From contig JAGNBV010000003.1 of NCBI GenBank assembly GCA_018004645.1, positions 1 to 63,943 of the forward strand: 63,943 bases of DNA, given 5' to 3'. The translations under genes were made by a program, and so were the position numbers. Origin of the DNA: Bacteroidales bacterium. Its GTDB lineage: Bacteria > Bacteroidota > Bacteroidia > Bacteroidales > CAIWKO01. The notes beneath the pieces were generated by a model. The model ran no database searches, had not been told where the DNA came from, and saw only the letters and a list, made by a program, of their open reading frames with translations. Below, in pieces: positions 18,778 to 34,062 of this stretch (position 1 is the first letter of the stretch; each line of letters opens with the position of its first letter).

Positions 18778-20340
18778 CTACTTCGTGGGTTTTACTTTTT
18801 CCCACGGCCCAATATCGTATTTCTTAATCATCTGCCGGTAGGTATCGGCATCCCCGATTATTTTTTTGATGTGATTATGATAGCTGGTCATGGATAGTAT
18901 ATGGGAGAATCCCATGTCGGTAGCCACTTTTTTGCGCAGGATGAGGGAAATCATGTAGTTATAAAACTTTCGCTTATATGGTTCCGGTCTAAAGGCATAC
19001 TCTTTGAATAGTTTTGCCAGCAGTCTGATCACAAAGCCGGCGCCAGGTTTCCCATCATTGTATGGCTTGCGAAAGTATCCATCGCCAAAAAGCACGCTGG
19101 CCTTTTTATACAATGATTCAAAAGAATATATTTTGGTAAGCGTTTCGAGATATTTGTCAAACAAATCAATCTGCGACATCTTATAGTAATGGATGCAGGG
19201 AAACAAACCGCCCATCATGTCGGTGTCGATATCGTACATACGGCCTTCGGCGGTAAGCCTTTTTTGCAGCTCTGAACCGTAAGGTGCACCAAGAATATTG
19301 AAGTTTACATAAGAGAGTCCTGTGCGTTGCGTAAACTCGTACAGGTGGTCAAATTCTTTCGCGGTATCATTGTCAAAACCAATTACAAAAGAGGCCGTGA
19401 TATGTATGCCATGAGAATGGATTTTTTTAATGGCGTCCTCGTAGATCAGGGCGTCGCGGTTTTGCTTCTTTTTGGTTTCGAAAAGGCTGCCTGCATTTAA
19501 TGATTCAAAACCAATAAGGATATTAAAACATCCGGCATTGTTCATCGCGGTGAGTAATTCTTCTTCGCGGGCAATTTCGATGCTCGACATACAGCCCCAT
19601 GAAATCTTCAGCGGGGCCAATGCTTTCATCAGGTCGTGGGCGTAACGTTTATTGGCGGTGAGGTTATCATCCACAAACAGCATTTTTTTTACCGGCAGGG
19701 ATTTTATTTCTTCCACCACGTTGGAAATTTCGCGGTAACGCATTTTGTGCCCAAACAGGTTGGTGACCAGGCAGAACTCGCACTTGTAAGGACAACCGCG
19801 CGAAACCTGAATGCCTACCTGAAACACCTTTTTCATATCTACCAAATCCCAGCGGGGGATGGGTATTTCTTTAAAATCAACGTATTCGCCCGAATTGTAA
19901 ATTTTTTGCAGTGCTCCCTGTTCAAAATCCTGCAGGCATTTTTGCCAGGCGCTTTCAGCTTCGCCAACCACAACAGCATCGGCATGTTTGATGGCCTCAT
20001 CGGTCATAAAGGATACGTAAGGCCCTCCGATAATTACTGTAGCGCTTTTTGACCTGTACCAGTCGCCGATTTCATAGGCTCTTTTTGCTGTGGTAGCCAG
20101 TGTGGAGATGCCTACTATTTCAGGAATTTCTTCGGGCAAAGGTTCAAGTTCTTCATCTATGATACGCACCTGGTATTCGGGGGGAGTAATGGCTGCAATC
20201 ATAGGCAAGGCTAGGGATACCATAAACTTTTTTTTGCCCATCATTTTGCAGAGTTCGGTCTGCCCGTAATAATTTACATATTTCTGTCCGGGCATGACCA
20301 GAAAAATTCTTTTTGAGCTATGTGTCTTTCCGTCGGTCAT
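18778..20340 (-). CDS. Cobalamin (B12)-binding-domain radical SAM enzyme (class B), long form
   Basis: N-terminal B12-binding-like domain (IVGISTLATT...VIIGGPYVS...VVVGEAE). Radical SAM cluster motif CPYKCEFC. ATG at 20340 preferred; the TTG at 20349 would overlap the KASIII stop by 4 nt. Confidence 0.8.
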   Translation of the reverse strand: MTDGKTHSSKRIFLVMPGQKYVNYYGQTELCKMMGKKKFMVSLALPMIAAITPPEYQVRIIDEELEPLPEEIPEIVGISTLATTAKRAYEIGDWYRSKSATVIIGGPYVSFMTDEAIKHADAVVVGEAESAWQKCLQDFEQGALQKIYNSGEYVDFKEIPIPRWDLVDMKKVFQVGIQVSRGCPYKCEFCLVTNLFGHKMRYREISNVVEEIKSLPVKKMLFVDDNLTANKRYAHDLMKALAPLKISWGCMSSIEIAREEELLTAMNNAGCFNILIGFESLNAGSLFETKKKQNRDALIYEDAIKKIHSHGIHITASFVIGFDNDTAKEFDHLYEFTQRTGLSYVNFNILGAPYGSELQKRLTAEGRMYDIDTDMMGGLFPCIHYYKMSQIDLFDKYLETLTKIYSFESLYKKASVLFGDGYFRKPYNDGKPGAGFVIRLLAKLFKEYAFRPEPYKRKFYNYMISLILRKKVATDMGFSHILSMTSYHNHIKKIIGDADTYRQMIKKYDIGPWEKVKPTK

Positions 20341-20345
20341 ATCAA

Positions 20346-21455
20346 TCAATAATAACGAAGTGTAAAACCAGCCTGCATAAATTTGCTGACTTCAGTAACA
20401 AAACTTATGATCAGGTCGTTTGGGAAAAGCTTTTCTTCCCTTAAAATCTTGTCGAGGCAGATGAAAACCATAGGAGGGCCTATATAGCCCATATCGTTCA
20501 TCCGGGTGTAGAGGGACTCTTTTTTTATTCCGAGTTGTCCGCATTCTTCGATAATCATCTCGGCTATATGTTTTGACGGGAAGTTGACCTGGAAGAATCT
20601 TAATGTGCTAAGGTCGATACCGTATTTTTCAATCATGCGTTTCAGGCCTTTGTAAAACACCGAGCCGTCGTCATCATGAAAATGCATGCGCAGTTGTTCG
20701 TTAAACATCTGTGCCAGGTGATGATCGCCGTTTTCGAACTCTTGTTTGGGGTTTTGCCAATAGGCGGGACGATGGTTGAGCATAGCCGCAGGTTTCTTAC
20801 CGCCGACAGATTCCATAAACACATTTTCAACGAATAATCCTTTATGGTCTGTGGCTTTTTGCAGTACCAGCGCTCCTGCGCCATCGCAAAGGAAATACCG
20901 CAGAAACAATTCTTCTTTTTTCAGTAAGGGCTGATTGTAATACTCCGCTATTAATTCTGAGGAGGAAATGCCCGATGAGACCACCAGCGCGTTATCGTAT
21001 CTGCCCGATTGTATGAACTCATAAGCGATCAGCAGGGCTTTGTAGGCGGAGGTGCAGTTAGCATGTATTGATACTTCAGCACAATACTCAATGCCAAGAG
21101 CTTCCTGTATCCTGACGCTGGCCGTAGGCATCTGGTGCTGATGTGCGCTGCCATAAGCGATAAATTGTATGTCTTCAGGTTTCATTCGGGCCATGTCAAG
21201 AGCCTGGCGTGCTGCCTTGACGGCCATGGTTACATTGTCTTCGGTAAACTTGCGGGTTTCGGGATCGATGGCATAATGATAATATCCGATATCAAGCATT
21301 TCTTTCATCACCGGCCTGATACGTGAAAGCCATCTGCTTACAGATGCCGGAGCGTCTGTTATTTCACCCAGGTAACGGTCGGTTTCTTCAAAAGGAACCG
21401 CCTTGCCTGGCAAAAACCTTCCCGTTCCTGTTATTTTAACCCTGTGATCTGACAT
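20346..21455 (-). CDS. KASIII (FabH)-like thiolase-fold condensing enzyme
   Basis: 369 aa. Candidate Cys-His-Asn triad (HANCTSAY; FPSKH; MNDMGYIGPP). FabH/type-III-like size and layout. Confidence 0.75.
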   Translation of the reverse strand: MSDHRVKITGTGRFLPGKAVPFEETDRYLGEITDAPASVSRWLSRIRPVMKEMLDIGYYHYAIDPETRKFTEDNVTMAVKAARQALDMARMKPEDIQFIAYGSAHQHQMPTASVRIQEALGIEYCAEVSIHANCTSAYKALLIAYEFIQSGRYDNALVVSSGISSSELIAEYYNQPLLKKEELFLRYFLCDGAGALVLQKATDHKGLFVENVFMESVGGKKPAAMLNHRPAYWQNPKQEFENGDHHLAQMFNEQLRMHFHDDDGSVFYKGLKRMIEKYGIDLSTLRFFQVNFPSKHIAEMIIEECGQLGIKKESLYTRMNDMGYIGPPMVFICLDKILREEKLFPNDLIISFVTEVSKFMQAGFTLRYY

Positions 21456-22114
21456 TATTTCGATTTTAAAAATTTCCCGACATAATAGTTTCTGAGTTCC
21501 GGGTTATAATTGTCATAAATTTGCCGGGCAAAGTTAACTGCTTTTACGATAATTTCATCTTTCCTGACCACCTTGTCGATAAGCCCCAATTGTTCAGCTT
21601 CTGATACATTCAGGTTGTTTCCTTTAAGCATCAGTTCCATCATAGTTTTTTTTCCTGTAAATTTTGAAAGATAAACAGAACCACCGCATCCGGTCATCAG
21701 GTTGAAGCTTGCTTCGGGAAAACCCAGCATAATATTTTCGGCAGCGATGCGAAAATGGCAGGCCATGGCCAGTTCCATGGCAGAGCCGATACACACACCT
21801 CTGATGGCGGCAATGACAGGTATTTTAGCTGCATGAAACCTTTTAAAGGTGAGGCTGTTTGCCATGTAAAAATCTTTAGCCTGTTGCGGATCCCTTGTGT
21901 CAAACGATAACAAATCCCTGATATCAGCTCCGGAGGAGAAATGCCTTCCTGCACCGCTTATTATGATCGCTTTCACGCGTTCATCATTCAGGATCTTATC
22001 TGTAAGTTCACGGATCTCATAGAAGAAAAGCTTGTTCATGCTGTTAGCCGGAGGGCTGTTCAGTTCAATGAACCCGATATTATCTTCAAAACGCCAGTTT
22101 ATACTTTGGTACAT
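21455..22114 (-). CDS. Enoyl-CoA hydratase/isomerase (crotonase) family protein, short (219 aa)
   Basis: Oxyanion and acid motifs ISGAGRHFSSGADI, CIGSAMELA and GFPEA. The stop overlaps the KASIII start as TAATG. Confidence 0.8.
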   Translation of the reverse strand: MYQSINWRFEDNIGFIELNSPPANSMNKLFFYEIRELTDKILNDERVKAIIISGAGRHFSSGADIRDLLSFDTRDPQQAKDFYMANSLTFKRFHAAKIPVIAAIRGVCIGSAMELAMACHFRIAAENIMLGFPEASFNLMTGCGGSVYLSKFTGKKTMMELMLKGNNLNVSEAEQLGLIDKVVRKDEIIVKAVNFARQIYDNYNPELRNYYVGKFLKSK

Positions 22115-22863
22115 TACAATGATCCGGATTTTCTTCTTGCGGCTTCTTCCTCAGCCAGTTCGCAGAACATAAGTGTTTCTTCATGCAGTGCTTCGTGCAG
22201 CGGGAGCTTATAGGCATTATGGATTGACTGCATAATAGAAGCGATCACCTTTTTAGGTTTTGACTCAAGCATACTATTCAGATATTTCAATGAATATTCC
22301 AAAACATTTTCTTCCGTCAGTTGATGTACTACATTTAATTTTAATGCTTTTTCCGCATCGAAAATTTCTCCTGATAATACATTAGCTATGGCTGCATAAG
22401 TTCCTGACTCTTTTACCATCCGCACGATGCCACCCAAACCGGGCAATAATGCGGAATTTATTTCAGGAAACGCAAAAAGAGCTTTTGCCGAAGCAAACCG
22501 TATATGGCACGACAGGGCAATTTCCAGCCCTCCGCCCCAGCAAACACCATTTATTGCCGCGATGACAGGGATTTTTAATTCTGATATTTGTTCAAGCAAT
22601 TCCGAGCCGGCTGTCATTTCTTGTTTAAGAATATCAGGATATTTTACCAGCTCAAAAAGGTTTTCCAGGTCGGCGCCGGCTGAAAAGTGACGCCCTGTGC
22701 CGGTGATGATTATCCCTTTTATTTCCTGGTCATCAGCGATATTGTACAATAGTTCTTTGCTGATAAAGGAAGGAGATTTCAGATAGTTTTGCGGGGGGCT
22801 GTTTATTTTCAACACTGAAATACAGCCTTTTTTTTCGATAAGGATATTAGCTGATTGGGACAA
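22114..22863 (-). CDS. Enoyl-CoA hydratase/isomerase (crotonase) family protein
   Basis: ITGTGRHFSAGADL, CWGGGLEIA, AFPEI. TTG start 2 nt after the thioesterase stop. Its own stop overlaps the next start as TAATG. Confidence 0.75.
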   Translation of the reverse strand: MSQSANILIEKKGCISVLKINSPPQNYLKSPSFISKELLYNIADDQEIKGIIITGTGRHFSAGADLENLFELVKYPDILKQEMTAGSELLEQISELKIPVIAAINGVCWGGGLEIALSCHIRFASAKALFAFPEINSALLPGLGGIVRMVKESGTYAAIANVLSGEIFDAEKALKLNVVHQLTEENVLEYSLKYLNSMLESKPKKVIASIMQSIHNAYKLPLHEALHEETLMFCELAEEEAARRKSGSL

Positions 22864-22865
22864 TT

Positions 22866-23258
22866 TCAGTTGTTTTTGGCGAGTAATACTTCGTATTCCT
22901 TAGCAAGGCCGCAGGGCACCCTGTCCTGATTCAGCGGGATGGTTTTAACGGTGGTGTGCGAAATCTGAATATTATCATCTTCGTTGAACATATACTGTTT
23001 AAAGACGATGTATGGCCCCGAAAATTCCACCTTGCTTTTGATGAGAATATTGTCGAACAAACGGGCTTCTTTGGAATACCTGATATTGATTTCGGTAACT
23101 ACCACCAGAATTTTTTCGTTCTGTAGTTTTTCGAGGAGGCCGGTTTCTTTCATAAGCTGCCAGCGGGCCTGTTCGTAGTAGTTCAGGTAAACGGCATTGT
23201 TAACATGGTTGTATGAATCCAATTCATAGCCACGTACCGATAATCGATATTCAAACAT
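22866..23258 (-). CDS. 4HBT/YbgC-type hotdog-fold acyl-CoA thioesterase
   Basis: 130 aa. RGYELDSYNHVNNAVYLNYYEQAR is the typical 4HBT N-terminal motif. Confidence 0.7.
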   Translation of the reverse strand: MFEYRLSVRGYELDSYNHVNNAVYLNYYEQARWQLMKETGLLEKLQNEKILVVVTEINIRYSKEARLFDNILIKSKVEFSGPYIVFKQYMFNEDDNIQISHTTVKTIPLNQDRVPCGLAKEYEVLLAKNN

Positions 23259-23296: not shown

Positions 23297-23698
23297 TCAG
23301 GATTTGCTGTTTTGTATTAAATTATCAACTTTTGCTTTTTCTATCTGGCTCCATTTTGGGTCGGTAAATTTGGAGCCGGTCCATGCAAAGTCAACCTGAA
23401 AAAAACTTTCATTTAAAAATGTCAGTTTTGATTTAGCATCCGGTGTGTGCACGATAAAAATTACCTTGTCATGGTCAATGGCAAACTCGGAGCATATTTG
23501 TGTTGCCAGGGGTGCGCAGAAATTTGTTACCGAGGTGCCGGGGTTTTCAGCGTAGAGTTCGGTGGCAATGATAATGGTTTGCCCGTTGTTTTCCACAATT
23601 TTAAGTCCGCAGCGTGAGGGGGCATCCCATTGGCCTTTGAAATCGTATACTTCAGTAAAATATTCAGAATTATTTTCGTTGTTGAAATGCTTAATCAT
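23297..23698 (-). CDS. Hypothetical 133-aa protein embedded in the cluster
   Basis: Clean ATG ORF on the same strand, 21 nt after the rSAM stop and 38 nt before the thioesterase start. I recognise no motif. Confidence 0.4.
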   Translation of the reverse strand: MIKHFNNENNSEYFTEVYDFKGQWDAPSRCGLKIVENNGQTIIIATELYAENPGTSVTNFCAPLATQICSEFAIDHDKVIFIVHTPDAKSKLTFLNESFFQVDFAWTGSKFTDPKWSQIEKAKVDNLIQNSKS

Positions 23699-23719: not shown

Positions 23720-24994
23720 TTATCTAATTACTTTTTTCCCAAAACTGCTTCTTGATAATTCTTCGCGTATGGGTTTGTAGGTGCCATTGGCGATTTCTTT
23801 CATGATGACCGAGCGGAAAAGCTTAAACATTTTTTCCGACTGGGTTTCATCTTTGTAAAAAGTATCCCATGCATAATGGTACAATTCCTGGAGTTTTTCA
23901 GGAGTCATCTGTTTAGGCTGAATGACCACTTTACCGGCGTTGTAATTATTCCAGTCCTTATCGATGATGCGGTTTTGCCTGAGCATGTCGTCGTAAGCTT
24001 TGGTGTGTGGGAAGGGCGTAAGTACGGTAAATTCGGCCAGGTCGAGGTTGACTTCGAGCAGGAAGTCGATCAGCCGTTTAATGTCGTCTTCAGTATGGTC
24101 GTCGGTTCCCAGTAGGATAGTGCCTTCTACCGCGATTCCATGGTCGTGGTAACGTTTTATTCTGTTTTTGATATAGTCCGAAGTATCGAATACGGCCTGA
24201 TATACAAACCATGCTCCGGCTTGTGCCGCCATGTCGAGTACTTCATCGTCGTCTTCAATAGGGTGGGAGCACCAGTTTTTCTTGAAGGGGATCATTTCGC
24301 GGAAGAGGTCGAGTTCCCATTGTTTATCCTGTGCCAGTGAGTTGTCCACGATAAACAGCCTGTTGTTATCGATGGTGGCCAGTTCTTCAACCACCTTGTC
24401 GATGGGGCGCGGCCTGAAGCATTTTCCTCCGAGGTAGGCTACAGCGCAAGGGTAGCAGTTGTATTTGCATCCACGCGAAGCATGGAAAAGGTCCACCATA
24501 CGCACTCCTTTGTGGTAGTATTTTTCCGTGTTCAGAATACTTCTGCGGGCAGGGCCGATGGTATTGATATCAGGGTGTACGGTGAGGTAATTATAAACTT
24601 TCTGCAATTTATTGTTGGCAAAATCCTCAAAAACTTTTTCCATACGTCCTTCGGCTTCACCAAGAAATATTGAATCGGCATATTCCAGAGTTTCCTCGGC
24701 ATGCAGCATGGTGGATATCCCGCCAAAAATCACTTTTTTGCCCCGCTTACGGTATTCGGTGGCAATTTCCCATCCGCGTTTTATCTGGCTCGTTAGCATC
24801 ATAGAAATGCCAACAAAGTCAACATCATTGTTAAAAATAACTTCGTCTACATTTTCGTCCGTAAATTCCACATCAACATAATCGGGTAAGGCGGCAGCCA
24901 TAACTACCGGGCCATGTGGTGGCAGATTAAAAGTGGTTTGTCCTTCGAGTTTTTCCCATTTAGGGTAGATAAGTTTGAATTTTATGCGTTGCAT
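23720..24994 (-). CDS. Cobalamin (B12)-binding-domain radical SAM enzyme (class B), short form
   Basis: FVGISMMLTS...VIFGGISTM...IFLGEAE B12-binding-like domain. CKYNCYPC radical SAM motif. Clearly paralogous to 18778..20340. Confidence 0.8.
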   Translation of the reverse strand: MQRIKFKLIYPKWEKLEGQTTFNLPPHGPVVMAAALPDYVDVEFTDENVDEVIFNNDVDFVGISMMLTSQIKRGWEIATEYRKRGKKVIFGGISTMLHAEETLEYADSIFLGEAEGRMEKVFEDFANNKLQKVYNYLTVHPDINTIGPARRSILNTEKYYHKGVRMVDLFHASRGCKYNCYPCAVAYLGGKCFRPRPIDKVVEELATIDNNRLFIVDNSLAQDKQWELDLFREMIPFKKNWCSHPIEDDDEVLDMAAQAGAWFVYQAVFDTSDYIKNRIKRYHDHGIAVEGTILLGTDDHTEDDIKRLIDFLLEVNLDLAEFTVLTPFPHTKAYDDMLRQNRIIDKDWNNYNAGKVVIQPKQMTPEKLQELYHYAWDTFYKDETQSEKMFKLFRSVIMKEIANGTYKPIREELSRSSFGKKVIR

Positions 24995-25073: not shown

Positions 25074-25081
25074 CAAAGATA
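25074..25081 (-). promoter_or_regulatory. Candidate internal -7 box (TATCTTTG on the minus strand) ahead of the core sub-operon
   Basis: The plus-strand CAAAGATA is the reverse complement of TAnnTTTG. It lies 80 nt upstream of the ATG at 24994, inside the 210-nt gap. Confidence 0.25.
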
Positions 25082-25204: not shown

Positions 25205-26704
25205 TCAGGTGTTATTAATTTTTTCCACCAGATATTTCATTCCAAGCAGTTCGGCACAGGTAGTTACCGAGCCAATAGTAACGCCCAGTACGCCGTGGAG
25301 AATAATGCTCTGGCCGGTAAGAAAGAGGTTGGGTATTTTTGTCCTCGGCATGATGAGAGTCTTCAGAGGTTCGTGGCAATCCTTGGCCACGCCATAAATA
25401 GAGCCGTCCACTGTACCGGTATAATCCCGGAAAGTCAGCGGACTGGAGGTGTAATATTTTTTAATGGTACTGCGGAAACCGGGGAAGCGGATTTCTACGG
25501 TGTCGAGCAGTTGTTCGGCTTTTTGCTGTTTAAAGGCCTGGTAATCATCACCACGGTGTTCAATAGTGGTATGTTCCCATCTTCTGACTTCATCCATTGA
25601 CATGTACGTAAGGATGGTAGCGCAGTCGGCAAAATTTTGCTGTTGTTCGCTTGAAGGCGTGATCAGCAGGTAGTTATTGGGCCAGCCTTTTCCGCGGACA
25701 TCATGCGAATACCATACGTTGTTGTTTTTATAGTAATATACGTTATGGTTCAGGTATTCGAAGGCGTCTTTTTTAAAGACTATATACATGATGAAATTTG
25801 ACGTGGTATTTTCCAGATTTAAGATACGTTCCCTGTAGGCGCTGCGGATTTTTGTCCTGTCAACCATTTCAATGGTTTTTGCGGGGTGTATGCTGGAAAT
25901 AATATTGGTGGCAAAAAACGATTCGCCATTGGTGAGTTTTACGCCGGTGAGTTTTTTGTTGTCAAAAATAAATTCCTCTACCTTGGATTTTTTAAAAATA
26001 GTGCCGCCATTTTCAATTATGGATTCTGCAAGGATAGTAGCTATATGTGAGCTGCCTTTCACCACCCGCCACGAGCTTTCGATAAAAGAATTATTGACCA
26101 GGGCGTGGACATACAGCGGGGTTTTTTCGGGTATGCCTGCATACAACGGGTTGCTCCCGGCGAGCACATTTTGTAATTTGCGGTTATGTGTAACCGATCT
26201 GATATAATCGAAAGCATTTTCCGAAAACAACTGAAGCTCTGACACCTGAAATTCGTTTTCTCTTATGCTGTACAGCGGAAAATGATTGCAAATATCTTTC
26301 AGCTTGCCGACATATTTTTCCAGTTCCTTTCTTTCGGACGGAAAATGGTGGCAGAGGCCATCCACAAAATGCTCATGCCCCATGGCAAACTTGTATTCCA
26401 CGGGATCTCCGGCAAAATTGATGGTGTCGAAACCATTTGCATCCATGCGTTTCAGGTCCAGTTTGTCCATCAACCCGAAGTACTTAAAATAACGGTTCAG
26501 CACCTGGCCTTCGTCCAGGCCTCCGATGAAATGAACGCCGGTATCGAACACGCAATTATCGCGGGTAAAATTCTGCAAACAGCCGCCAATCTGGCTATGT
26601 TGCTCAAGTATGCAGACTTTCATTCCCTCCCTGCTCAGGATATAGCCGCATTGTAAACCGCCAAGGCCGCTGCCGATAATGATGACATCAAATTTATTAT
26701 CCAT
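25205..26704 (-). CDS. NAD(P)/FAD-dependent oxidoreductase of the phytoene-desaturase (CrtI-like) family
   Basis: N-terminal dinucleotide fold DVIIIGSGLGGLQCGYILSREGMKVCILEQHSQIGG. About 500 aa. C-terminal FLTGQS typical of this family. Confidence 0.75.
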   Translation of the reverse strand: MDNKFDVIIIGSGLGGLQCGYILSREGMKVCILEQHSQIGGCLQNFTRDNCVFDTGVHFIGGLDEGQVLNRYFKYFGLMDKLDLKRMDANGFDTINFAGDPVEYKFAMGHEHFVDGLCHHFPSERKELEKYVGKLKDICNHFPLYSIRENEFQVSELQLFSENAFDYIRSVTHNRKLQNVLAGSNPLYAGIPEKTPLYVHALVNNSFIESSWRVVKGSSHIATILAESIIENGGTIFKKSKVEEFIFDNKKLTGVKLTNGESFFATNIISSIHPAKTIEMVDRTKIRSAYRERILNLENTTSNFIMYIVFKKDAFEYLNHNVYYYKNNNVWYSHDVRGKGWPNNYLLITPSSEQQQNFADCATILTYMSMDEVRRWEHTTIEHRGDDYQAFKQQKAEQLLDTVEIRFPGFRSTIKKYYTSSPLTFRDYTGTVDGSIYGVAKDCHEPLKTLIMPRTKIPNLFLTGQSIILHGVLGVTIGSVTTCAELLGMKYLVEKINNT

Positions 26705-26903: not shown

Positions 26904-29900
26904 TTATTTTTTTATTAAATACAGGGTGTTGGAGGTTATCCTTGGATTTTTTATTATCTGAACATTTACATTCAGTGATGCTGCAATATCCGCCAGTCTT
27001 GCTGCCGAAAAGAAATGAAGTTTGTCGTTTGCGGTTTTGTTAAACCCAAAATTTGTAGACATAAACTCTGTCCATCGTGTTTTTCTATGTTGCCGTTCAC
27101 TGTCTTTATTCGCATCCCTGATCAAAATTATTCCCCCCGCATTCAGCCTGTCAACGCATTGGTGCAGTATGCCGAACTGATTTTCGGGAGTCAGGTAATG
27201 CAGTACATCGCTCAGAATAAAAACATCGCTATTCCCAAATTCATAGCTGGTGATATCTTCGTGAGAAAACATAACATTAGGCGGTTTTGACAGGCAGTGT
27301 GAGGCTACATCAATTTTATCCCTGTCGTAATCTATGGCCACAATTTTCCTTTTGGGCGATACCCAGGCCAGCATCATAGATAAATAGCCATAGCCGCAGC
27401 CAATGTCTATTATACGGGCATCGCGCGGAATGATGTCGTTGTATTGGCTATAATTATTCTCCAATTTTGATTTTATCCGCGTGTACCATTCCAAAACCGG
27501 GCCTTTGTAAATAAAGTTTTTTATTAAAATATCGCGGTATAGTCTGGTGTCACTGTAATAGTCGTTTAAGAGCTTTTGGTGCTCCTGTCTGAAATGATGC
27601 TGAATATTTTTTGTCCGTTCGGTGTAATTGGCCCCCATGGCAGTATCGCCGGGTTTTATTCGGTCGAGAAACTTAACGGTTATCAGGCTTTTTTTGCCAA
27701 GTAAGTCATCTTTGGCAATATAGTTGCCCGTGCCGTGGCTCACAATGGGCAGGATATCCATGTGAAGCTGTTCTGCTAAATAAAAGGCGCCTTTATGAAA
27801 ACGCCCGATATGCCCGTCGGTAGAGCGGGTTCCTTCAGGAAAAATTATGACGGAATATCCTGCTTCGGCTACCGGTTTTATTTTTTGGGCTATAACGTCA
27901 TACCCCAGTGATGCAGGTAAGAAACCTCCCAGTTTCACAATGATGCCTATCAGTTTAGAATTGTAAAACGCATCGTTGGTAATCATGATGACTTTGGGCG
28001 AAAACATCAGGAATAACGGAATGTCAATGATCGACTGGTGGTTGGCGATGATAACCGCCGGCTCTTTCAGCGTGCCGGGAGTAAAGTTGATGATTTTCTT
28101 TTTGGTGAAATACATGAGATACATGGTTGACCGGCAAACCCCGTACAGGGTCTGATGATACAACAACTGTCTTTTCTTTTTTGAAACGGGCAGTACTTTA
28201 TAGATGGTAAGTCCCAGCAGGGCTGTGATGATGCATCCAAGCAGAAAGTAAGTGTAACACACCACGGCATAACTAATACCGTAAGCGGTAAGAGGAAATT
28301 TCCGGAACTTGTTTTTTTTGTAAACCAATACGCGGAATAAGGCAGGAGCAATGGTGTACGAGCAGAAAACCACGGAAAACATCCCGATAATTGTGAGCAG
28401 TGCGATAGAACGCAGGGCAGGATGTTTGGCGAATATCAATACGCCTATGCCAACAAACATGGTAAATGCCGACAGTAATACTGCTGTTTTGTAGGAGTCA
28501 AGCAGGTCGATTCCTTTTTTATACTTTTGAAGCAGGCCGTCCATGATAAATATACTGAAATCATCGCCCAGGCCGAAGATAAAAGCTGAAATGATGATAC
28601 TGAAAATATTAAATTTTATATGGAACAGGCTCATGAAGCCCAAAATCCACACCCAGCTGATCAGCATGGGGATAAATGCCGTGATGGCGAGTTCTATACG
28701 GCCATAAGAGATTAACAGGAACAAAAAAACCAGCAGAGATGAAATGAGAAGTATCGTATTAAAATCTTTTTTGATGATTTCAATAAACTGAGTCAGGATA
28801 TTTGAGGGTTCCACCACCAGGGTATTCGTAGTTTCAGGGATGGCGGCCAGCACCTGATCATACCTTTGGTTTTTTATTTTCAACGGGCTAAATACGTAGT
28901 TGTTCTTTTCATCATGATGGATATAGGGTTGGGCAAAATGTTCTTTGAGCCATCCAAAGTCTCCTGGACTAATGCATGAATAATTCTTATCGAGAAGTGA
29001 ATAAAAATCATGGAAAGCATCCTCGCTAAAGTCGTATTGGCGGGCGCTTTCGGCAAGATGGTTTTTTGTGTTTTGCCTGCGTTTATTATTCCAGAATTCC
29101 TTCCACAGACCTGCCTTAACTTGCTGCATCGAATCGGAGGGCAGGAGGGGGGAAACGCTCTGGATTTGACAAAACGCTTTGGATAGCTTCAAATCCATAA
29201 TTTTTCTGCAGGCATTTTCGTTGTGTTGCAACGCGGCGTTCAGGTTATCTCCTTTGCTGATCAGGAAAACCTGGCGTGAAGCATCTCCCGAAATATGCTG
29301 AAGAGTAGTTTCGGCCTGTCTCAGTTTTTCCGGGGTGTAGCCGAGTGTATTCATGTCGGTTTCAAAGCCGGGTTTCCCGGCCATAAAAAACAAAAACACC
29401 GTGATGACAGCCAGAGCCACTATCAGATAAGGATTCCGTTCGGGGTGGTAAGCCGATATCCTGTCGATGATATTCGTCTTTGAAGGGCCGCCTGTTTCCT
29501 CATTCTTGTGTTTTATTATGAAAGGCAAAAATATCAAGGTACACAGTACCGACCCCAGCAGGCACATCGCAGCGGCCAGGCCGAAATCGTTGAGAACTTC
29601 CGACCTGACAAACAAGAGCCCCAAAAACGCGCCTATAGTGGTTACGCTGCCAAGTGTCAGCGGCAAAGATAAGTCTTTGATGACCTGTCGGACCGAACCT
29701 GTATGACGGTAATGCGAAAAAAAATGTATGGAATAAGTCAGCGCCACGCCAAGGATTATTGATCCGGCTCCCAGAGCGATGAGCGAGATGTCATCGTTAA
29801 GCAGCGACAGGATGGCCATGGAAAACAGACCGCCAAAAACCACCGGTATCAAAACCAGGATGAAAGTGGTTTTTTTGCGAAAGAACACACTGAAAAAAAT

Positions 29901-30752
29901 GAATAATATCAGTATCGCAATACCCAGGGTAACGACCACGTCTTTCTTTAGTTGCACGGAGTTTCCCACGGAAGCCGCTACCGTTCCGTAATACTGTATG
30001 GTAAGCGATTCCCTGCCGGTATTTGCCTTATGCTCCCGGATGATATTGTCAAGTTCTTTGATGAGCTTTTTGTTATGAAAACTTTCGTTGGCGGGATAAC
30101 TGGATTGAACAAACATCAACAGGTGGCGGAGGTCCTGCGAAAAAATATGGTTTTTATAAATCCTGAAATTGCTGCCAATGCCAGGCATGCGCATTTTTTC
30201 CATTGCCAAACTGCCAATGTTGAGCGGGTCGCTGACAATTTGTTTTTTCAGGAAGGTTCCGGCAGGGGAAAGCAGTAGTTTATAGTTGCTGAGCATTACC
30301 GAGTCAATATGTTCCGGAGTCAGCATTTTCTCTATACGATCATAATCTTCTCTGTCAAGGAAAAAAGGAAGATTTCTGAGAATTAAATCATAGGTGCCGG
30401 CAAAATAATTGTCGTCAAACTTGCAGGTAATATTTTTCACCATACCCTGAACCTGCAGGTTTTCGAGGTTCCGGTTGACTTCTCCGGCATAGGAAATAAG
30501 TTTGTCGGGATCAGCTTCAGGATTGTTATCCGTAAGGATAATACCAAGGTCGTTCCCAGAATTTACCATGCGTAACACCTCATGAATATTTTCAGTAGCT
30601 TTTGTTTTGGGTAAAAAATCGGTGATGTCTTCGCTGACCCTTATTCGTGTTGCCATAAACAGAAAAAACGCAACTAAAAGAAACAAAACCACAAATAACA
30701 AAAACCTTCGTTGCCTGAAAAAATCATATATTTTAAGAAATATAAAACTCAT
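26904..30752 (-). CDS. Three-domain fusion of an MMPL/RND-like exporter, a PlsC-type acyltransferase and a class I SAM methyltransferase (1282 aa)
   Basis: About 830 N-terminal aa form two TM bundles separated by large soluble loops, which is exporter-like. HX4D motif ANHQSIIDIP (about nt 28025-28045) and FPEGTRS (about nt 27826-27845) mark the acyltransferase. IIDIGCGYGYLS (about nt 27385-27412) is methyltransferase motif I. Confidence 0.7.
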   Translation of the reverse strand: MSFIFLKIYDFFRQRRFLLFVVLFLLVAFFLFMATRIRVSEDITDFLPKTKATENIHEVLRMVNSGNDLGIILTDNNPEADPDKLISYAGEVNRNLENLQVQGMVKNITCKFDDNYFAGTYDLILRNLPFFLDREDYDRIEKMLTPEHIDSVMLSNYKLLLSPAGTFLKKQIVSDPLNIGSLAMEKMRMPGIGSNFRIYKNHIFSQDLRHLLMFVQSSYPANESFHNKKLIKELDNIIREHKANTGRESLTIQYYGTVAASVGNSVQLKKDVVVTLGIAILILFIFFSVFFRKKTTFILVLIPVVFGGLFSMAILSLLNDDISLIALGAGSIILGVALTYSIHFFSHYRHTGSVRQVIKDLSLPLTLGSVTTIGAFLGLLFVRSEVLNDFGLAAAMCLLGSVLCTLIFLPFIIKHKNEETGGPSKTNIIDRISAYHPERNPYLIVALAVITVFLFFMAGKPGFETDMNTLGYTPEKLRQAETTLQHISGDASRQVFLISKGDNLNAALQHNENACRKIMDLKLSKAFCQIQSVSPLLPSDSMQQVKAGLWKEFWNNKRRQNTKNHLAESARQYDFSEDAFHDFYSLLDKNYSCISPGDFGWLKEHFAQPYIHHDEKNNYVFSPLKIKNQRYDQVLAAIPETTNTLVVEPSNILTQFIEIIKKDFNTILLISSLLVFLFLLISYGRIELAITAFIPMLISWVWILGFMSLFHIKFNIFSIIISAFIFGLGDDFSIFIMDGLLQKYKKGIDLLDSYKTAVLLSAFTMFVGIGVLIFAKHPALRSIALLTIIGMFSVVFCSYTIAPALFRVLVYKKNKFRKFPLTAYGISYAVVCYTYFLLGCIITALLGLTIYKVLPVSKKKRQLLYHQTLYGVCRSTMYLMYFTKKKIINFTPGTLKEPAVIIANHQSIIDIPLFLMFSPKVIMITNDAFYNSKLIGIIVKLGGFLPASLGYDVIAQKIKPVAEAGYSVIIFPEGTRSTDGHIGRFHKGAFYLAEQLHMDILPIVSHGTGNYIAKDDLLGKKSLITVKFLDRIKPGDTAMGANYTERTKNIQHHFRQEHQKLLNDYYSDTRLYRDILIKNFIYKGPVLEWYTRIKSKLENNYSQYNDIIPRDARIIDIGCGYGYLSMMLAWVSPKRKIVAIDYDRDKIDVASHCLSKPPNVMFSHEDITSYEFGNSDVFILSDVLHYLTPENQFGILHQCVDRLNAGGIILIRDANKDSERQHRKTRWTEFMSTNFGFNKTANDKLHFFSAARLADIAASLNVNVQIIKNPRITSNTLYLIKK

Positions 30753-30758
30753 GCTGCG

Positions 30759-31586
30759 CTAAGGTTGGTTATTGGTGGGATTTTTTGCAGTTTTTTTTTG
30801 CCGGGTAGCAACATCGAACGTCATTTTTTTCTTTATAAATTTCAGCAGTGCTAAAGGTTTAATAATAAAGAAAGCTAAAAAAACCAGTATCGTGTTTAAA
30901 ACGCTTATTCTGAAAAAATCGCTGAACGGCCTGAAGTGCGAAACACGTTCACCGGCCGGTGGATAATAGACACTCACAGGGATGGGTATGGTCCTGATGC
31001 CACTCCAGGCCGAACGTACCAGCACTTCCACTTCAAATTCATATTTCCGGCCAAAAAATCTTTTTTTGTGTAACAGGTACAAGGGATAGGCCCTGAAGCC
31101 TGATTGCGTGTCGGGCAGTTTACGGCCGGTTTCAATATAAAACCAGAAGTTCGAAAACTTATTGCCAAAACTGTTTTTTGCCGGCATGTTTTCCGTTTGC
31201 AGGTTCCTTGACCCGATGATGATTGCTCCAGGCACTTCCATTATTTTCTTCAGAAAAGCAGGCAGGTCGGATGCGAAATGCTGTCCGTCGGCATCTATGC
31301 TTATCCCATACCGAAAACCCATGCTATGTGCATACCTGATGGCTTTTCGCAGCGCATAGCCCTTGCCTTTGTTTTTTTTATTATCCAAAATATGAATGCC
31401 GGAAAAGCTTTCCAGAATCTTCCCTGTTTTATCGGTCGATCCGTCGTTAACAACGATGATGTTGCCCGTGTATTCAAGCACCTCCGACAATACCTTGCCG
31501 ATGGTGCCGGCGTTGTTATACGTCGGCATAATCACACAACAGTGCAGTTCATCGAAAACAGCTTTTATGTCAGCCAGGTCATCCAT
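30759..31586 (-). CDS. Family 2 glycosyltransferase (polyprenol-phosphate glycosyltransferase-like, C-terminal TM helix)
   Basis: VIMPTYNNAGTI, VVNDGSTDKT, SIDADGQH (DxD). The ATG at 31586 gives an 8-nt overlap with the upstream gene. The track TTG start at 31619 would overlap by 41 nt. Confidence 0.75.
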   Translation of the reverse strand: MDDLADIKAVFDELHCCVIMPTYNNAGTIGKVLSEVLEYTGNIIVVNDGSTDKTGKILESFSGIHILDNKKNKGKGYALRKAIRYAHSMGFRYGISIDADGQHFASDLPAFLKKIMEVPGAIIIGSRNLQTENMPAKNSFGNKFSNFWFYIETGRKLPDTQSGFRAYPLYLLHKKRFFGRKYEFEVEVLVRSAWSGIRTIPIPVSVYYPPAGERVSHFRPFSDFFRISVLNTILVFLAFFIIKPLALLKFIKKKMTFDVATRQKKTAKNPTNNQP

Positions 31587-33252
31587 CGGTTGCGCAGGTT
31601 TTTTTTTCACAAAGATCAAGGTGTTTGCGGATTTCCTCTTTCTCCTTTTTGGTAGGGATTTCTTTTTGGAGGGCTATACGATAATAAGAAGTTGCATGTG
31701 TATAGTCTTTTCTCCTACGGAGGTAATCGCCGGCGGTGCTGTAGGATAAAAAGTATTCAGGGTTAAGGCCAATCATTTCTTCAATCAAAGCATTCACTAT
31801 GCCTTGATTTTCATGAGTTGCGAGCAACTCTTTCCTAATTTGCTTGAATCTTTCAAATTTCTCAAATTCTCCGTTGGTCAGCATGGGATCGCCCGGTATT
31901 ACAAGGGTTTCTGTGATTATATTACAGGTATCCTTGATGGATGAGGGCTTCCCGAATACCGTATTCAGGTCATAACATAAGAATTCTCCAAGGTTGAACG
32001 GCCCTGATGAAACCCACATTTTTAATTCGCCGGGCTTGAAAATGATGGCGTGATGGGCCAGCAGCTGGTTAAGGGTGTATTCGTTGCCGTTACCTATCGG
32101 CTTATCCTCCAACCCTAGGCGATTTCTTAGTATCCCTACGGCTTTTTCAACTGTAATTTGCCCGCTTCGTTCAAACAACTCACGGGTTCTTTGGTACCGG
32201 TACATTGAGGCCGTATCGTTGATCTGCCGTATGTTCATCGGGTCTTTTTTAAGGGCCTCCGACTGAAAGTGGTTGGTGCAGATAATCTGGCCGTTGTCCG
32301 GTTCAAAAATTTCGGTCCGGTAAGGAGTTTTTTCGATAATCAGTGCTTTGTTATCCCTGCCGGAGCTTACCAGAAAAGATTCGGATACTGAAATTCTGCG
32401 CTTGCGGGCAATTGCCACGGCCTCTTCGATAGTGCCGGCATATTGCAGCATTTCCCTGACCAGTATGGTAACCGGTGTGGAGATACTGCGGGGCATTTTT
32501 GATTTGGCTGCATTTACCGTAATGGCCAGACCTTGCATATTCATGCCCGAAACTGTTCCTACCAGGCCGCCCCAGGTGATCATGGCGAATTTGTTGCCCC
32601 GGTCGGGCGCGTAAAAAGAAATAATTTTCTCTTTGCAAAACTCATCACCGGCGTAAAAATCAAAATTCCGTGCATGTAACAGGTTGCCGTCGGGCGTGTG
32701 TTTTCCTGAAGCAACAAATGCTGTGCACCCGACCAGGTTGATATTCACCAGGGCGTGGGCTATATCGTGAGCCGCATGGTAATTGAGTATGCGCAAATAA
32801 GCAGGGCCTATCATCCGGAACCTGGCTGATGCCGAAAGAGAAACCCCGTAAATTTCAAGATCGTATTCCTTGCTGATATTTCCCTTTAACTTGCGGTTCA
32901 TCCATAAAGAAACAATTTTAAGAAACTGAAGGTAAAAGTTGTTGGGTATCCTTCTTTTTATCTCTTCAATAAAAAGGTTTTCCTGAGTATAGATCAGCTT
33001 TTCGGTCAGCCGGCCATTAATGATGCCGCGCTCATAAGGCGCTCCTTCAATGTACATTTCATAAAGCCCTCTCGAATTGAGGTGGCACCAATTATTGCCC
33101 AATTGAAGCATACGGTCGGATTTTTGCACGGGCTGATAATCGGTCAGGTCTGTGGCAGGAACCGCCGGATGCCTTTTGTAAGCACGTAAAAAATAAATTA
33201 GAATCACAGCAACAGTCAGCAGTAACAGGCCAATAAGTATATTCAATACCAT
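31579..33252 (-). CDS. C45-family (acyl-CoA:6-aminopenicillanic-acid acyltransferase-like) Ntn-hydrolase-fold protein with an N-terminal TM anchor and a C-terminal TPR-like tail
   Basis: N-terminal TM helix. LVG-CTAFVASGKHTPDGNLLHARNFDF fits the Gly-Cys autoprocessing/nucleophile site of C45/Ntn enzymes. The C-terminal YLRRRKDYTHATSYYRIALQ is TPR-like. Confidence 0.55.
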   Translation of the reverse strand: MVLNILIGLLLLTVAVILIYFLRAYKRHPAVPATDLTDYQPVQKSDRMLQLGNNWCHLNSRGLYEMYIEGAPYERGIINGRLTEKLIYTQENLFIEEIKRRIPNNFYLQFLKIVSLWMNRKLKGNISKEYDLEIYGVSLSASARFRMIGPAYLRILNYHAAHDIAHALVNINLVGCTAFVASGKHTPDGNLLHARNFDFYAGDEFCKEKIISFYAPDRGNKFAMITWGGLVGTVSGMNMQGLAITVNAAKSKMPRSISTPVTILVREMLQYAGTIEEAVAIARKRRISVSESFLVSSGRDNKALIIEKTPYRTEIFEPDNGQIICTNHFQSEALKKDPMNIRQINDTASMYRYQRTRELFERSGQITVEKAVGILRNRLGLEDKPIGNGNEYTLNQLLAHHAIIFKPGELKMWVSSGPFNLGEFLCYDLNTVFGKPSSIKDTCNIITETLVIPGDPMLTNGEFEKFERFKQIRKELLATHENQGIVNALIEEMIGLNPEYFLSYSTAGDYLRRRKDYTHATSYYRIALQKEIPTKKEKEEIRKHLDLCEKKTCATDG

Positions 33253-33300
33253 TCCATTATCTTTAGCTTACAAAATTATCTTTTTTTGGATTGCCGCTGT

Positions 33301-34062
33301 TCAAAAATCACCTTGATGGTACTGTGCGCTGAGCTGTTTGAATTCAGTACGCATTAGCCGCATGACATTATCAGTGAGTTCCTGGTAAGTGGCGCCATAT
33401 CCGGGACTTTCCACGGTTACCGGATCAAGAAATTTTACTAAGACATCACCGTGCTTGAGGTAAAACCAGCTTTTTTTCAGTATTTGCGGCGAATAAAATA
33501 TCACTACGGGCTGTATGTCCATCCTGAGTTTTTCTGCAACAAAAAATCCTCCTTTGTGAAAACGCGATATCGTTCCGTCTTTATTCATTTTACCTTCGGG
33601 AAATATCAGTAACGGACATCCCATTTTTACAGGTGTCCTGAGCTCTTCAACCAGCAGTTTTTTTTCTTTGTAAATAGAAAACAGGTTTATATATTTTGTA
33701 AGGAAAAACCTGGCCCAGACATTATCATGCCAGTTGTTGTTGAGTACACAAACTTTTGAATCGAAAGCCGTAGTAACCACTACATCGGTAAACGACTGAT
33801 GGTTGCATACTATCATTACCGGCTTATCAAAGGTATTTTTCTTTTTATTGATATATCGTACCCGGATATTAAAATGCGTTTTAATCACAAAGCGTGCATA
33901 CCCTACTAACAGCCGGGTGTAAAAATCATCAGCTTTCTTTTTTTTGTGTGTAAAAGGCGCAGGAATCAATAAGGTAAATACCTGTGAAGTGATGATGAAA
34001 ATTATAAACGAAACCAGTCCTTTGAAGAGTATCAATAGTTTTTTTAGTTCTTGTGTTGCCAT
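33301..34062 (-). CDS. PlsC/LPLAT-family lysophospholipid (1-acyl-glycerol-3-phosphate-type) acyltransferase
   Basis: TM anchor, HX4D motif CNHQSFTDV, and the FPEGKMN motif. Confidence 0.75.
   Translation of the reverse strand: MATQELKKLLILFKGLVSFIIFIITSQVFTLLIPAPFTHKKKKADDFYTRLLVGYARFVIKTHFNIRVRYINKKKNTFDKPVMIVCNHQSFTDVVVTTAFDSKVCVLNNNWHDNVWARFFLTKYINLFSIYKEKKLLVEELRTPVKMGCPLLIFPEGKMNKDGTISRFHKGGFFVAEKLRMDIQPVVIFYSPQILKKSWFYLKHGDVLVKFLDPVTVESPGYGATYQELTDNVMRLMRTEFKQLSAQYHQGDF

Follow-up and report, generated by a model that had tools for sequence, protein, structure and literature searches.

The 63,943-nucleotide stretch of contig JAGNBV010000003.1 from an uncultured anaerobic Bacteroidales bacterium that we analyzed (hereafter the window) carries 12 co-directional genes on its minus strand between positions 18778 and 34062, numbered g1 to g12 in order of transcription. 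The cluster is a real and conserved variant within the superfamily of flexirubin, aryl-polyene (APE) and 'ladderane-type' lipid clusters, and its gene content suggests that it probably makes and exports an unassigned membrane lipid. Our preferred reading, to which we give about even chances, is that the block would be a single biosynthetic and export cluster for a specialized envelope lipid, that is, a polyene-less relative of flexirubin and APE clusters with a DarB-like, head-to-head assembly of the core.

By gene content, the block is module X (g3, g4, g5, g6 and g7) plus module Y (g8-g11), with g12, g2 and g1 added and the APE module missing. Module Y, termed the cassette, encodes a 4HBT-type thioesterase, two enoyl-coenzyme A (CoA) hydratases (ECH) and a condensing-enzyme homolog (g11, or KS3), whereas g6 and g12 encode two B12-binding radical S-adenosylmethionine (SAM) enzymes, rSAMa and rSAMb. 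A preliminary description had reported 12 consecutive minus-strand open reading frames (ORFs) with junctions of -8 to +210 nt, with which the coordinates and recomputed gaps agree. Its domain assignments are borne out by Pfam and NCBIfam scans of all 12 proteins, and the motifs it quoted (NHQSFTD, FPEGK, GCTAF, DGSTD, DADGQH, CKYNCYPC and CPYKCEFC) all occur in the translations. No NCBIfam equivalog cutoff is reached by any of the 12 proteins; g2 alone passes any cutoff, that of the C45_proenzyme subfamily model.

Conserved gene order in uncultured anaerobes

Relatives of g11, collected from an alignment of its orthologs (A1), occur in 252 species genomes. Among the best 80 of these 252 records, all are metagenome-assembled genomes (MAGs) or uncultured isolates, from Bacteroidales and some Spirochaetota and Leptospirales, and the record names suggest anoxic sediments, lakes, peat, digesters and the subsurface as habitats. 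The modules of the cluster recur in hundreds of genomes of uncultured anaerobic Bacteroidales and Spirochaetota. In a synteny table built by tblastn, the cassette is complete in 67 of the 69 loci with enough flank; its neighbor genes were scored within 10 kb.

The window type, architecture A, consists of a flavin adenine dinucleotide (FAD) oxidoreductase, a C45 enzyme, rSAMa, g7, the cassette and usually rSAMb, sometimes with an upstream MMPL fusion. It is found at 16 species-level loci; with this order kept in at least 16 species-level genomes besides that of the window, it is not a chance arrangement. A gene-neighborhood survey, which had been proposed for telling syntenic from scattered homologs, thus finds conserved synteny.

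Architecture B is a full flexirubin- or APE-like cluster. Its first part comprises two ketosynthase/chain-length-factor (KS/CLF) pairs, a deacetylase, LolA, an ApeI-like dehydratase and the cassette, and its second part rSAMb (sometimes fused to a 3-hydroxyacyl-CoA dehydrogenase, 3HCDH), a FabF-like KS, an acyl carrier protein (ACP), MAT, more B12 radical SAM enzymes, a family 2 glycosyltransferase (GT2) and a fusion of MMPL, acyltransferase and methyltransferase domains (MMPL-AT-MT). At loci L001 and L003, for instance, the cassette lies between the ApeI-like, LolA, deacetylase and KS/CLF genes and the KS, ACP and MAT genes, followed by GT2 and the MMPL-AT-MT fusion. Architecture C is minimal and without radical SAM enzymes: it contains a divergent COMT-type O-methyltransferase, the cassette, a 216-residue protein, a dehydrogenase and a FabF-like KS. 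The O-methyltransferase (PF00891 plus a dimerization domain) is divergent from the cassette in 18 relatives (for example, L041:6602-7702), and the 216-residue protein, which is conserved but belongs to no family, follows KS3 in 20 relatives. Architecture D, found via g6, has no cassette and combines ACP, KS, CLF, LolA, an ApeI-like protein, GT2, MMPL-AT, an FAD oxidoreductase, rSAMa, a g7-like protein, an esterase and an AMP ligase.

The ligase of locus L090, of architecture D, passes the FlxY_rubin model (717 bits, cutoff 520), and proteins of L003, of architecture B, pass LolA2_flexi with 217 bits (cutoff 125) and LolB2_flexi with 103 bits (cutoff 60). The relatives of the window are therefore flexirubin-type clusters by NCBI criteria. 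At L090 and L091, module X follows MMPL-AT, and the homologs of g5, g6 and g7 are 47%, 74% and 42% identical to those of the window, the first value being that of g5 against its equivalent in flexirubin-type locus L090. L091 also holds a restriction-modification cassette within its biosynthetic cluster (L091:5817-9940), located between the FAD oxidoreductase and g6-like radical SAM genes and consisting of two N6_N4 methyltransferases, an MjaI-type endonuclease and a DUF6996/6997 protein.

The condensing enzyme and its partners

The 369-residue protein g11 (20346-21455, minus strand) is a thiolase-fold condensing-enzyme homolog. Its earlier designation as KASIII-like is apt insofar as it is ACP_syn_III-like, but it is closest to StlD/DarB and has Asn and Tyr in place of the catalytic His and Asn. 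The top NCBIfam models are StlD/DarB (PRK06816; 118 bits, cutoff 450) and resorcinol_DarB (91 bits, cutoff 550), then FabH (83 bits), all below their cutoffs. StlD is also the nearest solved structure (5gk0), and hhalign matches the g11 family to StlD over 339 columns with a probability of 99.2% and 24% identity. Cys 134 is retained (HANCTSAYK). The catalytic His of StlD/FabH is replaced by Asn 291 (FQVNFPSKH) and the Asn by Tyr 324 (MGYxGPPM), both of which are invariant in six orthologs, and identity among g11 proteins across phyla is 64-89%. By these measures, g11 is a homolog of head-to-head condensing enzymes, not a member of the DarB family. A head-to-head condensation is favored because the best family and structure matches are both StlD/DarB.

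At flexirubin-type loci that contain the cassette, KS3 is the sole DarB-like gene within 10 kb, and since these relatives need a resorcinol part, KS3 is read as DarB-like. COMT-type O-methyltransferases usually act on phenols, and the divergent gene of this type in the 18 relatives is likewise counted in favor of a DarB-like (resorcinol) condensation. The substrates of DarB are β-keto and 2-enoyl thioesters (PMC6836626), which hydratases and a 3HCDH would supply.

The two hydratase/isomerase proteins, g9 (22114-22863, minus strand; 249 residues; Pfam ECH_1, 123 bits) and g10 (21455-22114, minus strand; 219 residues; ECH_1, 127 bits), retain both catalytic glutamates (GGGLE and FPE in g9, GSAME and FPE in g10). 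Their best matches are ordinary enoyl-CoA hydratases, for g10 also among solved structures. The C terminus of g10 is short: the Pfam match covers profile positions 2-193 of 251, so the protein is without the usual C-terminal helices, and its orthologs have the same length. The remaining cassette member, g8 (22866-23258, minus strand; 130 residues), is a hotdog-fold acyl-CoA thioesterase of the 4HBT/YbgC type (4HBT_2, 54.8 bits) that scores 67.9 bits against the YbgC/FadM model (cutoff 68.7). Together, the hydratase glutamates, the YbgC-type thioesterase and the C45 enzyme g2 suggest that the pathway operates on CoA thioesters.

Cassettes of the 3-hydroxy-3-methylglutaryl (HMG)-CoA-synthase type in the curacin, bacillaene and mupirocin pathways also pair a thiolase-fold enzyme with two crotonase-fold proteins. 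Here a KS-like enzyme, an ECH1 dehydratase and an ECH2 decarboxylase would install a β-methyl branch. The likeness of the gene triad is superficial, though, as g11 has no HMG_CoA_synt Pfam match and its NCBIfam matches to HMG-CoA synthase are weak and confined to the N terminus, both ECH proteins keep their hydratase glutamates, unlike ECH2 decarboxylases, and the window contains no ACP or KS0 partner. The catalytic residues largely refute such a cassette, and we give β-branching next to no credence.

The synthesis of 3,5-dihydroxyphenylacetyl-CoA by DpgA/B/D likewise involves a thiolase-fold condensing enzyme and two crotonase-fold proteins that work on CoA thioesters and form an aromatic ring. 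DpgA is a type III polyketide synthase with a Cys-His-Asn triad that uses malonyl-CoA, whereas g11 is not a type III polyketide synthase and is without the His/Asn pair. Against the DpgD model, g9 and g10 score ~101-103 bits (cutoff 400), which is weaker than their generic hydratase matches.

Degradation pathways, too, typically feature hydratases together with a thioesterase and a thiolase-fold enzyme, and the block might thus serve a catabolic, β-oxidation-like pathway in which radical SAM enzymes activate an unusual substrate. In the relatives, however, the cassette is linked to ACP, MAT, KS/CLF, LolA2/LolB2_flexi proteins, GT2 and the MMPL-acyltransferase-methyltransferase fusion, and the block encodes neither an acyl-CoA dehydrogenase nor a CoA ligase nor a true thiolase. 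A degradative role is highly improbable.

Missing carrier protein and polyene genes

The earlier observation that no ACP or KS/CLF pair lies in or beside the block extends, by tblastn and Pfam, to the whole 64-kb window. With queries from the cluster of L003, no tblastn match was found anywhere in the window for KS, CLF, ACP, MAT, LolA, ApeI-type dehydratase or 3HCDH; among these and the other L003 queries, solely the 4HBT protein, both ECHs, KS3, the radical SAM enzymes and GT2 have partners there. A second tblastn with the cluster-type ACP and KS of L089 gave no window match, and no PP-binding or ketoacyl-synt gene was found by Pfam among the scanned window ORFs, which include the remaining large ones. 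The scanned ORFs also contain no AMP-binding or ammonia-lyase domain, and thus neither an aryl starter supply (TAL/XanB2) nor a FlxY/ApeH ligase, and LolA/LolB-like carriers (LolA2_flexi, LolB2_flexi; ApeL/N) have no tblastn match in the window. Re-annotation of the block itself found no ACP/KS core. A small ACP gene in the 199- or 210-nt gaps was considered and rejected: the translation of 26697-26903 looks non-coding, and tblastn with the cluster-type ACP was negative. The absence of ACP and KS therefore holds for these 64 kb.

The carbon-skeleton half of the pathway had been described as replaced. This is correct in that the polyene part is missing here, but the cassette also occurs inside complete flexirubin-type clusters with KS/CLF and ACP. 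Judged by this context, the cassette appears to correspond to the DarB (dialkylresorcinol) branch of such clusters, whose aryl-polyene branch the window does not have.

Among the 46 well-flanked loci (those with 7 kb or more before the cassette and 5 kb or more after it), 34 have a FabF-like KS beside the cassette, 11 are of the window type without one, and 1 has neither. The FabF-like KS of the relatives (NCBIfam FabF, 468 bits) is often accompanied by ACP and MAT. Within 10 kb, neither a FabF-like KS nor an ACP is found at any of the 16 window-type loci. On the complete MAG chromosome OY782882.1, the window-type cluster L070 is without g12, ACP and KS, and the near edge of a second locus, L089, lies ~67 kb from it by record coordinates. 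L089 encodes a FabF-like KS, 3HCDH, MAT and a phosphopantetheinyl transferase, along with a g12-like radical SAM enzyme (58% identity) and a cluster-type ACP that is 60-71% identical to the ACPs of architecture B. Partners of the fatty-acid-synthase type can therefore be supplied in trans. DarB-type clusters without an ACP of their own are documented for bartoloside and the putative microcarbonin cluster (PMC6836626). An ACP-less cluster needs a genome-wide check before its pathway is termed ACP-independent.

The main rival explanation draws on the same loci. In it, g11 would be a priming transacylase acting through Cys 134, the cassette and g12 would make an unusual short acyl-CoA (methylated, unsaturated or cyclized) that is elongated in trans by FabF-like KS, ACP, MAT and 3HCDH, and the modified fatty acid would be attached and exported by g1-g4. 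The change of the His/Asn pair, which serves malonyl decarboxylation in FabH-type enzymes, to Asn/Tyr while the acyl-accepting Cys is kept fits a priming role, as do the FabF-like KS next to the cassette in 34 of the 46 well-flanked relatives, often with ACP and MAT, and the elongation set of L089 at ~67 kb from a window-type cluster. Globally, however, g11 is nearer to the non-elongating StlD/DarB than to FabH, the count of window-type loci with KS or ACP within 10 kb is 0 of 16, and the window gives no sign of such an elongation set in this genome. We consider the starter-unit explanation rather unlikely.

Radical SAM enzymes and the partner protein g7

The rSAMa enzyme g6 (23720-24994, minus strand; 424 residues) matches the Pfam B12-binding domain with 37 bits (cutoff 32.1) and Radical_SAM weakly. 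All three cysteines of its CX3CX2C motif (CKYNCYPC; C176, C180 and C183) stay invariant in an alignment of 11 orthologs (A3), in which columns average 85% identity. Conservation within the block is highest for g6, whose 120 best database clusters show identities of 73% or more, as against 40-70% for adjacent genes. The rSAMb enzyme g12 (18778-20349, minus strand; 523 residues) matches Radical_SAM with 53 bits, B12-binding with 30 bits, just under the cutoff, and DUF4070, and contains CPYKCEFC. With a B12-binding domain and a CX3CX2C core, both are, by sequence, class B (cobalamin-dependent) radical SAM enzymes. AprD4 is the sole notable sequence match in the PDB for either protein.

Over 1200 homologs of g12 were found, and nearly all that carry an organism name are from uncultured Bacteroidales; a relative with 98% identity, P0001, is from a JGI metagenome. 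Natural fusions occur among its relatives: KS3 precedes rSAMb in P0073 (901 residues), and rSAMb precedes 3HCDH in P0099, P0109 and P0117 (858-882 residues), with the P0099 fusion present on 49 contigs. Because it is fused to KS3 or a dehydrogenase in other genomes, g12 is tied to the intermediates of the cassette.

Neither g6 nor g12 comes near an NCBIfam cutoff, and the scores of g12 against HpnJ, PhpK, BchE and rSAM_ladder_B12 are all far too low. For the ladderane-type family TIGR04072 (rSAM_ladder_B12), g6 reaches 52.8 bits and g12 74 bits against a cutoff of 360, and membership was rejected on score. The combination of genes does resemble that in Kuenenia, Desulfotalea and Geobacter (PMC2649909, PMC13459092), and a radical SAM enzyme of the relative locus L003 scores 306 bits on TIGR04072. 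Hence a pathway in the style of ladderanes or polyunsaturated fatty acids deserves consideration, in which g5 would desaturate an ordinary acyl chain, the B12 radical SAM enzymes would cross-link, cyclize or methylate it, and the cassette would only supply or recycle acyl-CoAs. Such modification has been proposed for the anammox and Desulfotalea clusters, in which radical SAM, phytoene-dehydrogenase-like and FabF genes are combined. Besides the low scores of the two window enzymes, the window has no FabF paralogs, ACP or FabZ, and the product of the reference clusters is itself unknown. This alternative is quite unlikely.

The 133-residue protein g7 (23297-23698, minus strand) is conserved and has no recognizable family or fold. 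It follows g6 in 16 of 16 loci, and g7-like proteins are also found at D-type loci; that of L090 matches g7 with an hhalign E value of 8e-40. The former view of g7 as an orphan therefore stands as regards family, but not as regards context, because it is part of a conserved g5-g6-g7 module that elsewhere also lies beside ACP-KS-CLF. No Pfam or NCBIfam family matches it, and the named proteins among 56 homologs from a word-based search are all 'hypothetical.' The AlphaFold2 model (mean predicted confidence, pLDDT, 86.6) is α/β and not a four-helix ACP, and a Foldseek search of the PDB returned nothing at E≤0.001 (best TM 0.3).

Two candidate identities for g7 were tried. An ApeI-type dehydratase, which occupies that position in relatives, was rejected on a BLASTP E value of 0.08 against the ApeI-like protein of L003, the lack of a hotdog fold and the Foldseek result. 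A hidden carrier protein was rejected because of the α/β fold, the lack of a PP-binding match and the coexistence of a g7 homolog with a normal ACP at L090. A profile search places g7 in a large unannotated superfamily (proteins P0297-P0444 among others): 1446 representative clusters match at E≤1e-3, of which 383 reach E≤1e-10. In a few cases, the members are C-terminal domains of 296-380-residue proteins with an N-terminal or middle DUF6166. Fusion partners were also tried as a guide to function, but DUF6166 alone was found and is uninformative.

Probable lipid-anchoring and export genes

The set of proteins for lipid anchoring and export in APE and flexirubin clusters, that is, a PlsC acyltransferase, glycosyltransferase, thioesterase, methyltransferase and MMPL/RND exporter, is present as g1, g3, g8 and g4. 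The first gene, g1 (33301-34062, minus strand), encodes a 253-residue PlsC-type (lysophospholipid) acyltransferase with an N-terminal membrane segment, which matches Pfam Acyltransferase with 53.6 bits and carries the HX4D motif as NHQSFTD, plus FPEGK; NCBIfam matches to AGP acyltransferase are sub-threshold.

The 557-residue protein g2 (31579-33252, minus strand) belongs to the autoproteolytic C45/Ntn type, as an acyl-CoA acyltransferase or hydrolase, and has a membrane segment at its N terminus. It matches Pfam AAT, and passes NCBIfam C45_proenzyme with 210.5 bits against a cutoff of 85. The nearest solved structure is isopenicillin-N acyltransferase (2x1d), and g2 resembles acyl-CoA:6-APA acyltransferase. 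In 10 orthologs (A4), the nucleophile Cys 176 is invariant and Gly 175 nearly so (GCTAF motif). On the score and the Gly-Cys site, g2 is assigned to the C45 (Ntn) autoproteolytic acyltransferases/hydrolases.

The GT2 protein g3 (30759-31619, minus strand) is of the polyprenyl-phosphate-sugar synthase type (Glycos_transf_2, 82 bits) and contains DGSTD and DADGQH; its top NCBIfam models, AglJ and PpgS, are below cutoff. The -8-nt junction between g2 and g3 presupposes the ATG at 31586 as the start of g3, which is likely. In the 1282-residue g4 (26904-30752, minus strand), an MMPL/RND exporter of HAE3-like type is joined to a PlsC acyltransferase and a SAM-dependent class-I methyltransferase. Its Pfam matches are MMPL, Acyltransferase and Methyltransf_25/31/23, and those in NCBIfam, of HAE3/HpnN-like and UbiG-like type, are all sub-threshold. 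The same three-part fusion is found at L001 and L002, and orthologs at L009, L011 and L012 are 57-65% identical. Finally, g5 (25205-26704, minus strand; 499 residues) is an FAD-dependent oxidoreductase of the CrtD/CrtI/carotenoid-isomerase type (NAD_binding_8 and Amino_oxidase) that scores 127 bits against CrtD (cutoff 550).

The view that the anchoring and export half is APE/flexirubin-like is upheld by the relatives: g3 is 55% identical to the GT2-DUF2062 protein of flexirubin-type locus L003, whose proteins pass LolA2_flexi and LolB2_flexi, and the g4-type fusion recurs among them.

Proposed pathway

In the proposed head-to-head pathway, g9 and g10 would interconvert 3-hydroxyacyl- and 2-enoyl-CoA intermediates drawn from fatty-acid metabolism. 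Then g11 would load an acyl unit on Cys 134 and couple a second unit without malonyl decarboxylation, giving a cyclohexanedione/resorcinol-like or otherwise branched core as the head-to-head product, and the thioesterase g8 would release or proofread the CoA thioester. These CoA-bound intermediates would be acted on by g12, most likely by C-methylation or an oxygen-independent oxidation or cyclization. Module X (g5, g6 and g7) would contribute a tailoring common to several cluster types, for example, desaturation or aromatization plus a radical modification. In the last step, g2, g1, the PlsC domain of g4, g3 and the methyltransferase domain of g4 would anchor the product on a lipid or glycolipid and O-methylate it, and the MMPL domain would export it. 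ACP and FabF-like KS would be unneeded in cis, coming from primary metabolism or a distant locus. The anchoring and export roles of g1-g4 follow the APE model, which assigns such roles to ApeD, ApeJ, ApeK, ApeM and ApeB (PMC8253772).

Several observations weigh against the head-to-head pathway as drawn. The protein g11 is not a DarB ortholog: it scores 91 of the 550 bits required and has Asn 291 and Tyr 324, so that its reaction may be another one, for example simple acyl transfer. Among the 12 proteins, NCBIfam detected no aromatase of the DarA/StlC type, and tblastn found no 3HCDH in the 64-kb window. The anchoring proteins of the window all stay below the NCBIfam flexirubin cutoffs. As module X is also found without the cassette, it is not specific to the product of the cassette. 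Lastly, with a FabF-like KS in cis in 34 of 46 well-flanked loci, often together with ACP, 'no ACP' may mean not in cis, and the pathway may not be truly ACP-free.

A broader and more tentative proposition, doubtful at present, is that uncultured anaerobic Bacteroidales and some Spirochaetota make an undescribed class of envelope lipid, with a resorcinol/cyclohexanedione-like or other head-to-head fatty core assembled on CoA instead of ACP by a DarB fold bearing Cys-Asn-Tyr and remodeled without oxygen by two cobalamin radical SAM enzymes, one of them working with g7. A 2026 review lists ladderanes and Jaw5 as the only fatty-type lipids with a proposed radical SAM modification (PMC13459092). 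If the envelope-lipid reading is true, the cluster would provide the third case for a fatty-acid-type (non-isoprenoid) lipid, one widespread in anoxic environments, and an anaerobic counterpart of flexirubin-type pigments. As relatives of g11 are found in 252 species genomes, the best 80 of which are all MAGs or uncultured isolates, the product of the cassette could be an abundant unassigned environmental lipid or biomarker. The enzymology raised includes a DarB fold with Asn/Tyr for His/Asn, the conserved g6 with its partner g7, and flexirubin-like chemistry without oxygen.

Comparison with known systems

Full-text literature searches found no description of this cluster type and no characterized pathway that matches, in line with the preliminary description, which could assign none. 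The flexirubin clusters of Chitinophaga pinensis (flxA-Y plus darAB) and Flavobacterium johnsoniae (Fjoh_1073-1110), from the same phylum as the window, share with it a phospholipid/glycerol acyltransferase, a glycosyltransferase, an exporter, a thioesterase and a DarB-like ketosynthase (PMC3992019). By comparison, the window is without TAL, FlxY, KS/CLF, ACP, ketoreductase, dehydratase, LolA, deacetylase and DarA. It has, in addition, the B12 radical SAM enzymes g6 and g12, the CrtD-like flavoenzyme g5, the C45 acyltransferase g2 and the enoyl-CoA hydratases g9 and g10. In the paper on the Chitinophaga flexirubin cluster, a text search for radical SAM, phytoene or oxidoreductase genes came back empty (PMC3992019).

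The late steps of the APE pathway (apeA-R of E. coli and Xenorhabdus) resemble the window in ApeD, ApeJ, ApeK, ApeB and ApeM. These are proposed to be a lysophospholipid acyltransferase, a glycosyl/acyltransferase, a thioesterase, a methyltransferase and an RND/MMPL exporter, respectively, with the product being joined to a membrane lipid and moved outward (PMC8253772). The window is without the ApeC/O/R KS-CLF, ApeE/F ACP, ApeQ ketoreductase, ApeI/P dehydratase, ApeH ligase and Lol-like ApeL/N, and its exporter, acyltransferase and methyltransferase are fused in one protein.

DarAB/StlCD systems contain the best family and structure match of g11 and have in common with the proposed pathway the joining of two fatty-acid-derived thioesters. 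Including the bartoloside cluster brt, they also provide a precedent for carriers borrowed from primary metabolism and for added glycosyltransferases and exporters (PMC6836626). The window differs in having no DarA/StlC aromatase and in the loss of the catalytic His/Asn from g11, and the Dar systems described are without the two ECH and 4HBT partners and the B12 radical SAM enzymes. DarB homologs that are 'DarA-less' were already suspected of a different chemistry (PMC6836626).

The clusters of Kuenenia (anammox), Desulfotalea and Geobacter, all strict anaerobes, share a B12 radical SAM enzyme, a phytoene-desaturase-like flavoenzyme, a glycosyltransferase and membrane proteins with the window (PMC2649909, PMC13459092). 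Those of Kuenenia and Desulfotalea combine radical SAM, phytoene-dehydrogenase-like, glycosyltransferase and ligase genes, and their product is unknown (PMC2649909). Compared with these ladderane-type clusters, the window is without FabF paralogs, amxACP and FabZ, and its radical SAM enzymes are not TIGR04072. The ECH-ECH-KS3 cassette is not reported for them, and the term 'enoyl-CoA hydratase' is absent from the text of PMC2649909.

Candidate transcription signals

The junctions from g1 to g12 measure, in order, +48, -8, +6, +199, +210, +21, +38, +2, -1, -1 and -4 nt. A scan of the block for sigma-70 promoters and terminators gave counts at the level of shuffled sequence, with no intergenic minus-strand terminator within the block. 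Each of the three long intergenic gaps has one minus-strand TAnnTTTG box, a candidate Bacteroidetes-type -7 element, 80-107 nt ahead of the next start codon. These motif matches lie at 34161-34168 upstream of g1, 26811-26818 before g5 and 25074-25081 before g6. The TAnnTTTG count across the window is at chance level and their placement alone is suggestive. Three transcription units, g1-g4, g5 and g6-g12, are possible on this pattern.

The same units could be two or three adjacent but independent operons that do not form one pathway, with g1-g4 serving envelope lipid acylation and export. Apart from the boxes in the 199- and 210-nt gaps, which stand at a plausible distance from the start codons, this would agree with the separation of modules X and Y in other genomes and with the many window-type relatives that have no MMPL gene within 10 kb. 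However, the adjacency of FAD oxidoreductase, C45 enzyme, rSAMa, g7 and cassette is kept in 16 species, the flavoenzyme gene is directly preceded by an MMPL-AT(-MT) gene at L009, L011, L090 and L091 (at L038 and L070, the best window match of the preceding ORF is the acyltransferase g1), and relatives also join GT2 and MMPL-AT-MT to the cassette. Separate promoters are, moreover, compatible with one pathway. Independent operons are therefore very unlikely.

Neighboring genes

Window ORFs outside the block encode cargo of the type IX secretion system (T9SS), transporters and housekeeping proteins, and Pfam scans of the large ones found no lipid genes. Downstream of the block lies a convergent gene for a 1809-residue T9SS cargo protein, and upstream are genes for a PETase-like T9SS hydrolase and for two transporters, of the POT and MFS types. 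Between the POT transporter and PETase-like genes, at 35420-35443, stands a strong hairpin terminator that is bidirectional, with a 9-10-bp stem and T runs on both strands. Six large T9SS-sorted proteins with Por_Secre_tail or CHU_C domains are encoded at window positions 2088-4172, 5421-7478, 13254-18683, 34222-35382, 48582-50996 and 51590-55051, and such sorting signals place the window in Bacteroidota. Both G+C content (0.507) and GC skew (0.19) peak at 52001-54000, inside the gene for a 1153-residue CHU_C/PKD protein, which is likely a repetitive or compositionally biased coding region.

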